Shown: positions 27,559 to 52,531, counted from the first letter of the stretch. The stretch: 64,000 bases of DNA from a virus (IMGVR_UViG_3300040801_001572:50655-114654); one strand, 5' to 3'. Made by a program: numbers and translations. Notes: a model not told the origin generated them from the sequence alone.

Positions 27559-27937
27559 TAGCATGACACGTTGGGCGGAAGCTGCAAAACAGTTCCGCGC
27601 AGATTTACATGAGATCACTTATTTCTCTAGAGACAGAAGAAATCGATATCAGGAAATTTACGCCAGTCACGGTGGCGATCGAAACATATACGTATACCTC
27701 AATATGTTCACACACGAAATACTTCGTATTGTGATCTCGTGCGATTATTCTGCTGACTCGCACCAGAATCAAACCGAATCAGTTGACATTTTAACTAACG
27801 ATGCTAACTTAAAACTTCAGATCGAGAGTTTAGACTCGGTCAGAGAAATGCGTGAATCGATGTCAGTATGTCGCAAACTTGCATACGAAGACACAGTTTA
27901 CGCTACATTAAAGTATGGAAAATTGAAACCTTTCTAA
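27536..27937 (+). CDS. Hypothetical protein
   Basis: ORF track; coupled to previous gene. Confidence 0.6.
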   Translation: MANQLFDDSMTRWAEAAKQFRADLHEITYFSRDRRNRYQEIYASHGGDRNIYVYLNMFTHEILRIVISCDYSADSHQNQTESVDILTNDANLKLQIESLDSVREMRESMSVCRKLAYEDTVYATLKYGKLKPF

Positions 27938-28054
27938 AGAAGGAGTCGAACATGAATTAACATGTTGTTATAATTTTCAACTATACTTAAGAATGCTCGG
28001 GTACGAGCTGCCTCTAGTTGGAAGGAATGTCCGCCACCAATTATGTAAAATATT

Positions 28055-28440
28055 CGACAACAGACCCTGGGACATAAAGGCTGTTGTGGGTTGATCACAA
28101 ACCTAACCGAAATTTGTGTGCCTCTTGTTCAGCCTTACATGAATAATGCAAACTAGTCAACGATGGTAGTACCCGCTGCTTTAGTAAGGATAGGCAGCGA
28201 CATTTAAGTGAAACTGTGCGGCATTGGAGCCGCGTCGACAAGGGAGAGTTTACTCCCAGTACAAGATAGCACAGACGCTGTGAGCGGAAATACGTCAGAG
28301 ACTGCCAAATCGCAGTGACCAATTTTTCTGCAAGATGGTGCTCGCAGAAGAGCAATCAGCTGAATCCCCTGAGTGGACAAGTCGATGGCGATGACCTTGT
28401 GCAAAGACGGACAGTGGGCGGGGTAGAGTCCGCCCTCACT
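28055..28440 (+). ncRNA. Candidate large structured ncRNA upstream of the tRNA array
   Basis: ORF-poor and hairpin-rich; terminal GC hairpin at 28412-28440. Confidence 0.4.
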
Positions 28441-28468
28441 TAATTACTCACTTTTTTATAAAAAGCAG

Positions 28469-28496
28469 TTGACAGAACATAAATAAACTTTATACT
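28469..28496 (+). promoter_or_regulatory. tRNA array promoter P1
   Basis: TTGACA-N16-TATACT followed by GC-rich discriminator GCACCGC; AT-rich upstream. Confidence 0.8.
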
Positions 28497-28562
28497 GCAC
28501 CGCATTGTTTAGCGATTTTGGCATTGAAGGCCAAAAACTGCAAAAAAACCTGTTAAAAGAGG

Positions 28563-28591
28563 TTGACTTTTGTTTGGAAGCTAAATATAAT
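28563..28591 (+). promoter_or_regulatory. tRNA array promoter P2
   Basis: TTGACT-N17-TATAAT. Confidence 0.85.
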
Positions 28592-28651
28592 TGCGGAACA
28601 GTTAACGAGTTCCACTGCGTTGGGCTCTAATTAAAGGAAATGGTAAGACAA

Positions 28652-28804
28652 ATGTTTACGATATTACACGACAAGCAACTCGGACATCGCTGGCAAGCGA
28701 CCGCATCCGTGTTGGCGTGTGGATCAGAACTGAGTCTGATGGAACCTGGCTTTAATTATGATCCGATTAGCGCAGCTTCTTTAGGGGAGGAAGAGCTTTA
28801 CTAG
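28652..28804 (+). CDS. Putative attenuator leader peptide (50 aa, contains all 20 amino acids)
   Basis: MFTILHDKQLGHRWQATASVLACGSELSLMEPGFNYDPISAASLGEEELY; AAGGA at 28634-28638; second in-frame ATG at 28640. Confidence 0.7.
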   Translation: MFTILHDKQLGHRWQATASVLACGSELSLMEPGFNYDPISAASLGEEELY

Positions 28805-28863
28805 AATGACTTAGTGAACTCAAGCAAGAACCTAAAGAAGCAGCTCAAGAAGCTGCTTTTTTT
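28772..28863 (+). terminator. Antiterminator/terminator switch (attenuator)
   Basis: Terminator AAGCAGCT-caaga-AGCTGCTT+T run (28838-28863); GCTTCTTTAGG (28775-28785) perfectly complements CCTAAAGAAGC (28831-28841). Confidence 0.8.
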
Positions 28864-29147
28864 ATGGCTAAAGTTTTGTAAGGCAGCTTGGATAGAAAAC
28901 TTTAGCCCGTGTAGACACCAACTACGCGGTGATGGTAAGGACGGCTTAGTATGAAAGCGCAGAGGTTGAAATCCCTCCCGACTCATACTTTGGCAACCCC
29001 GGCTAGTGCGGTAGCTAGTTCGGTCCAGGTACCCCGGAACTCTATTCGTGAGGACGAATTTTGCGGGATAGAATTTGTCCTTGATTTTTCGGTGGGCGAA
29101 AGGAAATAGGTCCGAGTAGCCCACTTTTAATATTAAGTGCTTTTTGT

Positions 29148-29236
29148 GGTGGCTGTGACGAAATTGGTAGCCGTGCAAGGTTGTGACCCTTGTGTCTGTA
29201 ATGGACGTGGGAGTTCGAGTCTCCTCAGTCACCCCA
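29148..29236 (+). tRNA. tRNA-His(GTG) with long variable arm
   Basis: G-1:C73; CAAGG-ttGTGac-CCTTG; 16-nt V region; CCA. Confidence 0.85.
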
Positions 29237-29311
29237 AAGAGCATTTGTAATACCCCAAGAACTATGTGACCTCAACCTTGGCATATAAATGAATCACATA
29301 GGAGAAATGTT

Positions 29312-29689
29312 ATGATTTACGTAGAAGACTTTCAGTCTTGGGAAGATGTTGAGCAGTGCTTCAACATGAAAGAGGATAATGCAATTCCGTTATACGCTGA
29401 GTATACCTACGAGAACTACGATGGCTCTGCTTTCGTGTTGTATGTTGATCGTCGTGATATGCAGTTGTATGCGGTATACGGAGGACACTGTTCTTGCTAC
29501 GGCTTAGAAGACCAGTGGGATCCTGAGCATATTCCTTGGAATGTATCTGCAGAGATGGTAGGTAAAACTGCTAGCTTAGGTGGATACGAACAGGTTGTTC
29601 TTGACATGATAAACTCAATCGTGGGCTCCGGTTCCGAAGAGGACATCATGCAAGGATTAACTGTGTTCAAACTAAAGCACTCAGTGTAG
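29312..29689 (+). CDS. Conserved phage hypothetical protein
   Basis: YENYDGSA..GGHCSCYGLEDQW motif; SD present. Confidence 0.7.
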   Translation: MIYVEDFQSWEDVEQCFNMKEDNAIPLYAEYTYENYDGSAFVLYVDRRDMQLYAVYGGHCSCYGLEDQWDPEHIPWNVSAEMVGKTASLGGYEQVVLDMINSIVGSGSEEDIMQGLTVFKLKHSV

Positions 29690-29705
29690 GAAACTACACT
29701 GTTTT

Positions 29706-29780
29706 CTCCCGGTCGATTATTGGTTAAATCATCTGCCTTTCAAGCAGAAGCACGGAGTTCGATCCTCCGTCGGGAGACCA
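29706..29780 (+). tRNA. tRNA-Glu(TTC)
   Basis: Cloverleaf; TCTGC-ctTTCaa-GCAGA; CCA. Confidence 0.9.
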
Positions 29781-29783
29781 AAT

Positions 29784-29926
29784 TAGGTAGTATGCTACGA
29801 ACCTCACATGGAGGAGACGCGGATCTACCGAGTCGTTAGAATAGATGATTAGCATGAACCTTGCTCGACCATCTAATAGTTCTAGACTATTAGACTCAAG
29901 CGACTGGATTGCTAGTGTACTACCTA
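29784..29926 (+). ncRNA. Unknown ~143-nt structured RNA
   Basis: 14-bp closing stem TAGGTAGTATGCTA/TAGTGTACTACCTA plus internal helices. Confidence 0.55.
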
Positions 29927-29941
29927 GCGGCGGGCTTATAT

Positions 29942-30029
29942 GTCGTAGTGGACGAATGGTAGAGTCGCCGGGCTTTCACCCCGGAGTTGCGTATGCATGT
30001 TGCGAGTTCGAGTCTCATCTACGATTCCA
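29942..30029 (+). tRNA. tRNA-Glu(TTC)-like with long variable arm
   Basis: CCGGG-ctTTCac-CCCGG; 17-nt V region; U discriminator; CCA. Confidence 0.7.
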
Positions 30030-30051
30030 AACAAGTTTTATAAATAGGTGT

Positions 30052-30711
30052 ATGATCTACATTGTTTATAAAACAACAAATACTGCTAACGGAAAAGAAT
30101 ACATCGGATGCCATAAAACAAAAGACATTGACGATGGCTATTTAGGGTCCGGAAGATTGCTTCGAGAAGCAATAGTTAAATACGGCATAGATTCTTTTCG
30201 TAGAGAGATTATTGCTATATTAGATAGCGAAAAAGAAATGTTTGCGTTAGAAGCAAGTATTGTTGATCGAAATTACGTCGATAGAAACGATACATATAAT
30301 TTAACATTAGGTGGCCATGGAGGATTCTCTCATATATCGAAAGAATCTATGTTAGAGAGAAACTTGCAAATTAATTCACATCGTGATTACGAGTGTGAAC
30401 TTTACAAAGAAAATTTAAAAGCATCTCTTGCTACTGTAGACTACAGCGAAAGAAATAAGCGAAGAAGAGAAACGTTAGTTAATCGATATGGCTGCGTTCC
30501 TTCTTCGTTTAAAGGCAGAGAGCATACTGATGAATCAAAGAAGAAAATTGGTTCGGCAAATTCAAAACACCAGCAAGGCACCGGCAACAGCCAATACGGA
30601 ACTTGTTGGATATACAATTTGCATCTAAAGAAGAATCAGAAAATTCCTAAATGCGATCTTGATGCGTGGCTAGATAAAGGCTGGCACAAAGGTCGTAAGC
30701 TAAAATTTTAG
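30052..30711 (+). CDS. GIY-YIG homing endonuclease
   Basis: IVYKTTNTANGKEYIG, YLGSG, NUMOD3-like HTDESKKKIG. Confidence 0.9.
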   Translation: MIYIVYKTTNTANGKEYIGCHKTKDIDDGYLGSGRLLREAIVKYGIDSFRREIIAILDSEKEMFALEASIVDRNYVDRNDTYNLTLGGHGGFSHISKESMLERNLQINSHRDYECELYKENLKASLATVDYSERNKRRRETLVNRYGCVPSSFKGREHTDESKKKIGSANSKHQQGTGNSQYGTCWIYNLHLKKNQKIPKCDLDAWLDKGWHKGRKLKF

Positions 30712-31902: not shown

Positions 31903-31973
31903 GGGTCGTTGCTCTGGGAGCAAATTGGATTCCAAACCCAATGAGGAGGGTTCGAAACCTTCACGGCCTGCCA
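31903..31973 (+). tRNA. tRNA-Trp(CCA)
   Basis: ttCCAaa loop; very short D loop; G73; CCA. Confidence 0.8.
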
Positions 31974-33183: not shown

Positions 33184-33274
33184 GGAGGGTGATCCTGTCT
33201 GGGACAGGCGTGGTCTTGAAAACCAATGGAGGGTAGAAATATCCTTGCAGTTCGATTCTAGCCGCCCTCTGCCA
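33184..33274 (+). tRNA. tRNA-Ser(TGA), Sec-like scaffold
   Basis: 8-bp acceptor; 6-bp D stem; ctTGAaa loop; long V arm; G73; CCA. Confidence 0.8.
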
Positions 33275-51704: not shown

Positions 51705-51980
51705 GCCGGTATAGCTCAGCAGGTAGAGCAACTGACTTGAAAAGACGAGTGCTCCGAAGGAAACTTTGGAAGTAGAACTCCTCAAATTCGGGGAAACCTT
51801 TAACATGGCAATCCCGAGCGAAGCCCGGAAGGGAACGTGTAGAGACTTGACGGGGAGCAGCTAAGTCGTTAGATACGCTGAAGAGAAAGTCCAGACCACA
51901 AACGGTAAATGCCGGCAACGAAAGTTGTAGTTGGTAAGGTAATCAGTAGGTCCCGTGTTCGATTCATGGTGCCGGCACCA
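51705..51980 (+). tRNA. tRNA-Thr(TGT) interrupted by a group I intron (exons 51705-51738, 51939-51980)
   Basis: Spliced ACTGA-ctT|GTaa-TCAGT; body resembles proteobacterial tRNA-Thr(UGU); CCA. Confidence 0.9.
51739..51938 (+). mobile_element. Group I self-splicing intron, 200 nt, no ORF (IC3-like)
   Basis: P AAATTCGGGGAA, Q AATCCCGAGC, R GTAGAGACTTGACG, S AAGAGAAAGTCC; P1 with U-G at 5' splice site; terminal G. Confidence 0.9.
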
Positions 51981-52221: not shown

Positions 52222-52515
52222 ATGCGATTATACGAGTTTGATTCTGCAAGGAAAGACGGAGACGGGAGTCCACAAGAAGGCTTCACTGCAAAGGTTTGGC
52301 TTGAGAACGAAACGTTCTTCACTGTGTTCTTTGATTACAACATCATTGACGATGTTTGGAAAGCAAAGAACTATCAAGGCCCAAACGAATATCTTCCTGC
52401 CGTAACAAGCTATTCGTGGCCAGGCGGCCCGCTAATACCCGACGAAGTCAAAAGATCTTTTGAGAGACATTGGGTAAAATTTCCCCCTATGCCGCCTATT
52501 GACAGAATAGACTGA
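52222..52515 (+). CDS. Hypothetical late protein (MRLYEF...)
   Basis: TAAATA-N5-ATG. Confidence 0.65.
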   Translation: MRLYEFDSARKDGDGSPQEGFTAKVWLENETFFTVFFDYNIIDDVWKAKNYQGPNEYLPAVTSYSWPGGPLIPDEVKRSFERHWVKFPPMPPIDRID

Positions 52516-52531
52516 ATTCCTTTATAATATT

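Follow-up and report, generated by a model that had tools for sequence, protein, structure and literature searches.

A candidate leader-peptide attenuator that encodes every one of the 20 amino acids upstream of the tRNA array of an uncultured jumbo phage

Leader-peptide transcription attenuators, represented by trpL, hisL, pheL, and leuL and by the multivalent thrL and ilvL, possess a short promoter-proximal open reading frame (ORF) and mutually exclusive RNA helices, and the position of the ribosome decides between these helices. The phage unit described here is predicted to share these properties, but a number of differences were noted. (i) Classical leaders contain their cognate amino acids, one to three in number, in runs, whereas the phage leader contains one to few codons of every amino acid. 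(ii) Classical attenuators control biosynthetic enzymes, whereas the phage unit precedes tRNA genes. (iii) The trp-type 1:2 pause hairpin, a classical feature, was not found as a conserved helix in the phage family. (iv) The stop codon is situated in the antiterminator loop in the phage and just before strand 2 in the classical systems. Of the features of leader-peptide attenuators, the phage unit thus has an open short ORF, an intrinsic terminator, and an antiterminator that excludes it, and it lacks a run of cognate codons. We propose that the unit works like a leader-peptide attenuator in which a selected completeness of the amino acid set would take the place of this run.

The nearest mechanism in print, by analogy, is the attenuator formed by the upstream ORF (uORF) of mycobacterial whiB7. 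The original prediction for this locus knew of no described equivalent, a statement that is not supported, since the whiB7 attenuator has been described as a general translation-stress sensor (PMC10274678). Like the phage unit, it consists of a long and diverse uORF with an antiterminator and a Rho-independent terminator downstream of it; termination results from efficient translation and readthrough from stalling, and the uORF of Mycobacterium smegmatis contains 19 of the 20 amino acids (PMC10274678). An amino acid is sensed by this system only when it occurs in the uORF, and in uORF variants devoid of Trp or His, the response to a shortage of the corresponding amino acid is weakened or abolished (PMC10274678). 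However, whiB7 is a cellular system that controls a transcription factor, and the completeness of its uORFs is not conserved, as they are enriched in Ala and many of them lack several amino acids (PMC10274678). The phage unit, in contrast, precedes tRNA genes, and all 36 of its leaders are complete. The two systems are unrelated in sequence, so that the phage leader would be analogous in its working and is not a member of the whiB7 family.

The nearest functional parallel in print, again by analogy, is the trn operon of Anabaena, a long accessory tRNA array that is induced when translation is impaired and that is regulated by the repressor TrcR acting on direct repeats over the promoter (PMC8421152, PMC10272220). 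This operon differs from the phage unit in that it is a cellular plasmid element for which no leader peptide, attenuator, or terminator has been reported, these words being absent from the article. T-box riboswitches are similar in being transcription attenuators that respond to tRNA charging by means of competing antiterminator and terminator helices, but they bind one specific uncharged tRNA directly and without translation, whereas the phage unit has a conserved reading frame. The Rfam T-box model gave no match at an E value of up to 1 in the window leader and of up to 5 in a relative. A full-text literature search retrieved no description of a leader-peptide attenuator for tRNA genes or phage tRNA arrays.

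The window, that is, the whole 64,000-nucleotide stretch of DNA analyzed, corresponds to the last 64 kb of a viral contig of 114,654 bp from IMG/VR that is ~31% complete according to CheckV. Its gene products include a portal protein of the T4 type and a nuclease subunit resembling gp46 (Pfam/PHROG level), and the source of the contig is an uncultured T4-like jumbo phage. As judged by the portal protein, the nearest cultured phage is Pseudomonas phage PA5oct, with an identity of only 57%, and IMG/VR contains many uncultured relatives with identities of 55 to 81%, of which four are complete genomes of 363 to 385 kb. In the closest relative, G001 (81% portal identity), the segment from the leader to the first tRNA aligns with the window at 72% DNA identity, and both promoters, the terminator, the antiterminator pairing, and an ORF of 51 codons with all 20 amino acids are kept. 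In the four complete genomes (~67% portal identity), the DNA preceding the first gene of the tRNA array was read; 3 to 5 tandem promoters are followed by a homologous ORF of 49 to 58 codons and the first tRNA, and the RNA has the same three-strand layout as in the window but a different sequence. Further relatives among viral and metagenome contigs were retrieved by pattern and profile searches based on the terminator pattern and on two C-terminal peptide motifs, none of which selects on amino acid content. Apart from that of the window, 35 distinct leaders were obtained, resulting in 36 distinct peptides of 49 to 60 residues, although these are kin and represent effectively far fewer independent lineages. 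All of the additional 35 present the succession of tandem sigma-70-type promoters, leader ORF, antiterminator overlapping an intrinsic terminator, and tRNA genes. The cultured-phage collection, searched at the DNA and protein levels with the leader region, its neighbors, a main-clade leader peptide, and a main-clade switch, produced no match, and neither did single-protein searches of viral contigs with the window leader and the next ORF. The features of the locus are as follows.

28469-28496, plus strand: promoter P1, sigma-70 type, TTGACA-16-TATACT, 11 of 12 positions matching
28563-28591, plus strand: promoter P2, sigma-70 type, TTGACT-17-TATAAT, 11 of 12 positions matching
28652-28804, plus strand: leader ORF of 50 codons and TAG, homologous to 35 other leaders
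28652-28759, plus strand: proposed sensing zone, codons 1 to 36 with all 20 amino acids (from the translation)
28772-28785, plus strand: strand A, forming the 5' side of the antiterminator, within codons 41 to 45 (pairing, fold, and covariance model)
28793-28821, plus strand: inner hairpin of the A-B loop, containing the stop codon at 28802-28804 (fold)
28831-28844, plus strand: strand B, forming the 3' side of the antiterminator, sharing 28838-28844 with the 5' arm of the terminator (pairing, fold, and covariance model)
28838-28863, plus strand: intrinsic terminator with an 8-bp stem, a 5-nt loop, and T7 (-14.3 kcal/mol alone)
28864-29148, plus strand: conserved structured RNA from the terminator to the first tRNA, with 14 pairs in which both bases are exchanged in G001 relative to the window
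29149-29236, plus strand: first tRNA, anticodon GTG, with a long variable arm (ARAGORN), which also follows the leader in G001
Tandem promoter clusters in relatives: L103, 4700-5240, minus strand; L104, 4350-4660, minus strand; L105, 4700-5870, minus strand; L107, 2627-3135, plus strand

The near-consensus sigma-70 promoter that had been proposed to precede the ORF is P2, which was found as claimed. The -35 and -10 elements of P1 are conserved in G001, in which the second promoter is slightly shifted in position. While the window has two promoters, the complete relatives have 3 to 5 strong tandem promoters of the form TTGACA-17-TAnAnT at distances of ~90 to 150 nt, all of them aimed at the leader. 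The sequence ATAAATAAAC is present in two copies in the window, one of which lies within P1, and is conserved upstream of all main-clade leaders. In the complete relatives, the motif GATGATAAATAA is conserved directly 3' of the last promoter, ahead of a covarying 5' hairpin. The ~500 nt upstream of P1 (27966-28456) harbor no convincing ORF and end in a GC-rich hairpin (28418-28436); a contig from an RNA library that matches 28120-28366 with 4 differences falls on this stretch. Two further candidate elements were dropped, namely, a T4-type late promoter as an additional entry point, as TATAAATA was not enriched, and an rrn-type boxA in the leader, the match being confined to the 5-nt core and absent, as judged by eye, from G001.

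The leader ORF has the predicted extent, with 50 codons and a TAG stop codon. It had been referred to as unannotated, which is only partly true, since a protein collection contains a public gene call of 54 amino acids starting at ATG 28640, an in-frame start codon that would lengthen the ORF by 4 codons. A search of that collection returned, besides this call, only a peptide nearly identical to that of G001. A GGA-type motif is found 6 to 9 nt 5' of the ATG in most relatives, and the Shine-Dalgarno match is weak in the window itself. When the 36 leaders are taken together, the leader frame is free of stop codons, as compared to 95 and 221 stops in the two alternative frames; 11 different leader lengths occur, every one of which is in frame with strand A; and the invariant Pro is encoded by all four Pro codons. 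Taken together, these data bear the signature of selection on the leader reading frame. Conservation is seen at the level of amino acids, with Pro being invariant and YW and QD near-invariant, while synonymous codons vary. As opposed to the attenuator reading, these residues could reflect a function of the peptide itself. Pfam and PHROG searches with the peptide identified no family, and AlphaFold, run on the alignment of the 36 sequences, returned no confident fold or secondary structure (pLDDT 52, pTM 0.14), which is a weak negative result because short peptides frequently fold poorly in silico.

The amino acid content of the leader was central to the original prediction, and the counts given there were reproduced. 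All 20 amino acids occur in the first 36 codons, the 20th being reached at codon 36; codons 1 to 14 are all different (encoding 12 different residues), and 33 of codons 1 to 40 are distinct. There are no runs of any amino acid, and every amino acid is present, many as single copies; in the window leader, Trp, Cys, Lys, Asn, Arg, and Val have one codon each. In the DNA of the window, only 0.16% of the open 36-codon segments in the six frames contain a complete set, and none of 9,818 such segments within long ORFs does. All 20 amino acids were found in each of the 36 leaders, against a background of 0.6 to 2.3% for segments of 50 to 60 residues in phage proteins and of 2.4% for six-frame ORFs of similar size. 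Since the leaders are related, we used a tree-aware null, a custom-made model in which site-independent evolution was simulated on the leader tree (derived from a 71-column alignment) with the residue frequencies of the family's own columns. Under this null, which already grants column conservation, ~45% of the leaves were complete. The event that all 36 are complete was observed in 0 of 2,000 simulations at a mu of at least 1 and with a probability of at most 0.05% at a mu of 0.5, and at a mu of 1 the simulated sequences were still more alike than the real leaders. The null does not yield 36 complete leaders because rare residues relocate between columns while none is lost. Across the leaders, residues present as a single copy occupy 6 different columns for His, 6 for Arg, 8 for Val, 3 for Cys, and 3 for Trp; two close leaders are separated by an Arg/Cys swap, and leaders that lack the Asp of the QDP motif have an Asp at another place.

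Two further properties concern the position and the coding of these residues. (i) In each of the 36 leaders, a distance of 9 nt or more separates the codon that completes the set from strand A, and completeness never depends on the last 11 to 20 residues, which lie over strand A and the inner hairpin. (ii) The number of distinct codons is above synonymous nulls, with a mean z of +2.1 for phage codon usage and of +1.4 for uniform usage, and 34 of the 36 leaders are above the mean of the uniform-usage null. This excess of codon diversity is suggestive only, as the sequences are related, but the completeness of the 20 amino acids looks selected.

The proposed RNA switch was recovered as predicted. 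Strand A pairs with strand B at 13 of 14 positions, the 3' strand of this antiterminator overlaps the 5' arm of the terminator at 28838-28844, and an internal GGGGAGG is found at 28783-28789. According to our own estimate, less than 0.01 inverted repeats of 13/14 are expected by chance within 300 nt. The terminator stem is formed by 28838-28845 and 28851-28858, with a T7 run at 28857-28863, and a hairpin scan listed it for the minus strand only; it is kept in G001 and in every family member with sufficient sequence. In the main clade, strand A (core GGCTTCCTT), which falls within the last codons, forms a helix of 16 pairs with strand B (core AAGGAAGCC), and B continues straight into the terminator stem of 11 pairs followed by T6-7. 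The inner hairpin of 5 to 6 bp is situated in the A-B loop and contains or adjoins the stop codon. The A:B helix and the inner hairpin are paired in 91.9% of the main-clade alignment cells, and this value decreases to 31 to 54% when the partner is slid by 1 to 3 columns. Seven pairs show changes on both sides, a number reached by none of 500 shuffles. Most of the covariation is supplied by the inner hairpin, including a G-C to A-U exchange in 5 main-clade sequences, whereas 10 of the 16 A:B pairs are invariant across the main-clade sequences and are hence uninformative on covariation. The A:B helix of G001 has a U-A to C-G exchange with respect to the window. In L169, a C-to-U change in B is accompanied by G-to-A changes at both of the positions with which it pairs, one in A and one in the terminator, a three-way change that is the prediction of two mutually exclusive helices with a common strand. 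A covariance model built from the main clade only gave a single, marginal match in the window (28771-28863, 17.4 bits, E value of 0.09) and detected the G001 element with 28 bits (E value of 3.6e-4); in the lineage of the window, both helices were remodeled and their overlap was retained.

On average, the predicted energy of the A:B helix with the inner hairpin is -29.6 kcal/mol, compared to -17.1 kcal/mol for the terminator alone, and A:B can form ahead of the synthesis of the terminator 3' arm. As A:B is both earlier and far more stable, the default state without a ribosome would be readthrough. A pause or anti-antiterminator hairpin of the 1:2 type was not conserved in the consensus fold of 13 full leaders, in which, apart from the inner hairpin, strand A merely forms a small hairpin of its own. 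The stop codon lies 12 to 16 nt past the 3' end of A and ~25 nt before the core of B. A Shine-Dalgarno (SD)-like motif is present within the ORF at the 3' end of strand A throughout the family, as GGAGG in the window (28783-28789) and as AAGGAG in most relatives (columns 17 to 22 of main-clade alignment A10); it might cause ribosome pausing or bind free 30S subunits. The GGGGAGG sequence was also considered as the start signal of a downstream ORF and was discarded, since there is no suitably spaced start codon and a 46-amino-acid GTG frame at 28814 is not conserved. An Rfam search of the leader identified no family; the element of a relative had only subthreshold Thr_leader and Phe_leader matches (20 to 21 bits as compared to a gathering threshold of 55), which we treated as chance level.

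Having named a comparison with relatives as decisive, the original prediction can be judged by it. In the relatives, the ORF and its completeness are retained together with the alternative pairing and the terminator, and the base pairs covary, which supports the core idea of an attenuator for all amino acids; the parts of the prediction that are not supported are the gating of the whole array, discussed below, the link to anticodon nucleases or counterdefense, and the absence of a described equivalent. On the level of sequence comparison, the conserved ORF, the selection for completeness, the competing and covarying helices, and the position before tRNA genes are documented. We consider it fairly probable that the unit, which precedes the phage tRNA array, is a transcription attenuator of the ribosome-mediated, leader-peptide type that senses a shortage of any aminoacyl-tRNA. 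In the mechanism that we propose, strong host-type promoters would start a transcript that first encodes the leader of ~50 codons, the last codons of which are strand A. This strand would pair with strand B, ~45 nt downstream, which also serves as the terminator 5' arm. With no ribosome on or just past A, the A:B helix would form first, and the polymerase would continue into the structured RNA and the tRNA genes. During undelayed translation, the ribosome would cover A and then sit at the stop codon in the A-B loop, so that B is free and transcription terminates. A ribosome stalled at any of the first 36 to 49 codons would leave A free, A:B would form, and readthrough would result. Since every amino acid is encoded upstream of A, stalling for any one aminoacyl-tRNA is expected to keep the ribosome off A, and the output of tRNAs would be fed back on decoding capacity. 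Because a ribosome at the stop codon leaves A uncovered, termination would depend on timing or on steric hindrance by this ribosome, both of which are assumptions of the model. From these features we infer the translation of the leader in vivo, the direction of the switch, and its physiological trigger; the polarity agrees with that of the trp-type and whiB7 attenuators. As for the trigger, a decay of the host translation capacity or a simple feedback on tRNA supply fits equally well as the anticodon nucleases invoked originally. The broader proposition that a leader selected for 20 amino acids and diverse codons reports the weakest link of the aminoacyl-tRNA pool and sets the phage tRNA output, restoring decoding when host tRNAs decay, are outcompeted, or are cleaved, is in our view evenly balanced between being right and wrong.

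The first tRNA had been placed ~285 nt downstream, in agreement with its start at 29149, 286 nt after the T run. From there to the end of the window, all tRNA genes called by ARAGORN are on the plus strand, with ORFs in between. An array covering all 20 amino acids, as claimed, was obtained only at a relaxed ARAGORN threshold (44 tRNAs); the default settings gave 41 tRNAs for 19 amino acids, and the Trp tRNA (31903-31973) was called at the relaxed threshold only. A tRNA on the same strand is present within the available downstream DNA of 28 of the 36 leaders, mostly 270 to 350 nt after the stop codon, and among the 8 leaders without one, several are on contigs that end early. In the window and the complete relatives, no strong promoter (>9/12) was detected between the terminator and the first tRNA. 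The array, however, extends over ~35 kb and contains further strong sigma-70-type promoters, such as those at 52499-52528 (12/12) and 56851 (11/12), so that a single switch cannot be said to gate all of it, as had been proposed. The promoter at 52499 ends four bases before a tRNA-Thr gene, transcription would start approximately at the start of this tRNA, and by its sequence it is an independent entry point within the array. The structured RNA of ~285 nt between the terminator and the first tRNA matched no Rfam family; it includes a minihelix resembling an acceptor/T arm near 28950-28995, and the main-clade relatives have a different-looking conserved structured stretch at the equivalent place.

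Two contigs from RNA libraries of one microbial-mat sample span 28724-29036 and 28790-29091, are 100% identical to the window, and bridge the terminator, reaching into the structured RNA. They are deeper than the contigs of the DNA runs of that sample, and they carry no information on transcript ends or levels, with DNA carryover being possible. Sequence identical to the window was found in four runs of this sample, which may be the source of the window itself. Coverage was inspected over 27900-30100, and uncovered parts were given no weight. These contigs fit the existence of readthrough transcripts in nature. One of them ends at 29091, beside a hairpin and T run at 29049-29092.

Several of these observations bear on readings other than attenuation by amino acid supply. 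The unit may be a real switch that responds to another signal, namely, arrest by the nascent peptide as in TnaC or SecM, free ribosomes or 30S subunits acting through the SD-like motif, or a binder of the inner hairpin. The invariant Pro and near-invariant YW and QD, conserved as amino acids with synonymously varying codons, would be in line with peptide arrest, the constant place of the SD-like motif at the 3' border of strand A with ribosome sensing, and the covarying inner hairpin with a ligand. We nevertheless regard such a switch as rather unlikely, since it leaves unexplained the retention of all 20 amino acids, the relocation of single-copy residues, and the completion of the set before strand A, and since neither a T-box nor another Rfam family was detected; selection for completeness alone would, moreover, conserve single-copy residues in place. 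In T4-like phages, a strong early promoter followed by a small ORF and a terminator is common, and the locus might accordingly be an ordinary small early gene with its own terminator, the peptide of which is functional, with A:B stabilizing the mRNA 3' end and the tRNAs being transcribed by leak-through or from other promoters. This usual layout, the calling of the ORF as a protein by a gene caller, the conservation of some residues, and the additional strong promoters within the array speak for such a gene.

However, an ordinary early gene accounts poorly for a completeness of 36/36, which exceeds the prediction from column conservation, or for the raised codon diversity; the peptide has neither a predicted fold (pLDDT 52, pTM 0.14) nor a family match, B is common to two helices linked by one three-way covariation, the unit is placed directly before tRNA genes (28/36 with a tRNA downstream), and promoters above 9/12 are absent from the terminator to the first tRNA. 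This explanation appears improbable to us. The product might also be primarily the terminated leader RNA, acting as a small regulatory RNA with the ORF being secondary, for which rnTrpL of Sinorhizobium provides a precedent of an attenuator-derived small RNA (PMC7968998). Strong tandem promoters with a terminator ~265 nt downstream would indeed release an abundant short RNA, but the amino acid completeness and the frame conservation would be left unexplained, and the RNA-library contigs cross the terminator instead of ending there. We consider this very improbable as the main function, and such a small RNA need not replace attenuation but could act alongside it.

For the dozens of tRNA genes found in large phages, both the reason for their presence and the time of their use are an open question; the roles proposed comprise the matching of codon usage, the replacement of a decaying host pool, and the escape from tRNA-cleaving defenses. 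If the attenuator reading is correct, the phage treats its own tRNAs as a demand-driven supply, with the array being turned on when any amino acid is decoded slowly. Leader-peptide attenuation would be extended from one or a few amino acids to all of them, with completeness as a selected sequence property, and from enzyme operons to tRNA genes. The completeness of a short ORF could then become a search criterion for similar sensors elsewhere. As the promoters are of the host type and the terminator is intrinsic, the switch should function in a reporter fusion or a defined system of transcription and translation, which would open this question to direct testing.

A number of other observations were made within the array. 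The His (GTG, 29149-29236) and Glu (TTC, 29942-30029) tRNAs contain a 13-nt insertion in the variable arm that gives them a class II-like appearance; the His tRNA with its insertion is kept in G001, and the tRNAs of G004 called as Trp and Gln have 89 nt. The segment 30788-30862 is an additional tRNA-like sequence with, by eye, an Asp GTC anticodon that was missed by ARAGORN. At 33184-33274, Rfam detects a tRNA-Sec-like scaffold (48.5 bits, gathering threshold of 47), which ARAGORN reads as tRNA-Ser with the anticodon TGA. Finally, a group I intron match in Rfam was found at 51729-51909, within the tRNA array region, with 54.5 bits as compared to a gathering threshold of 50.
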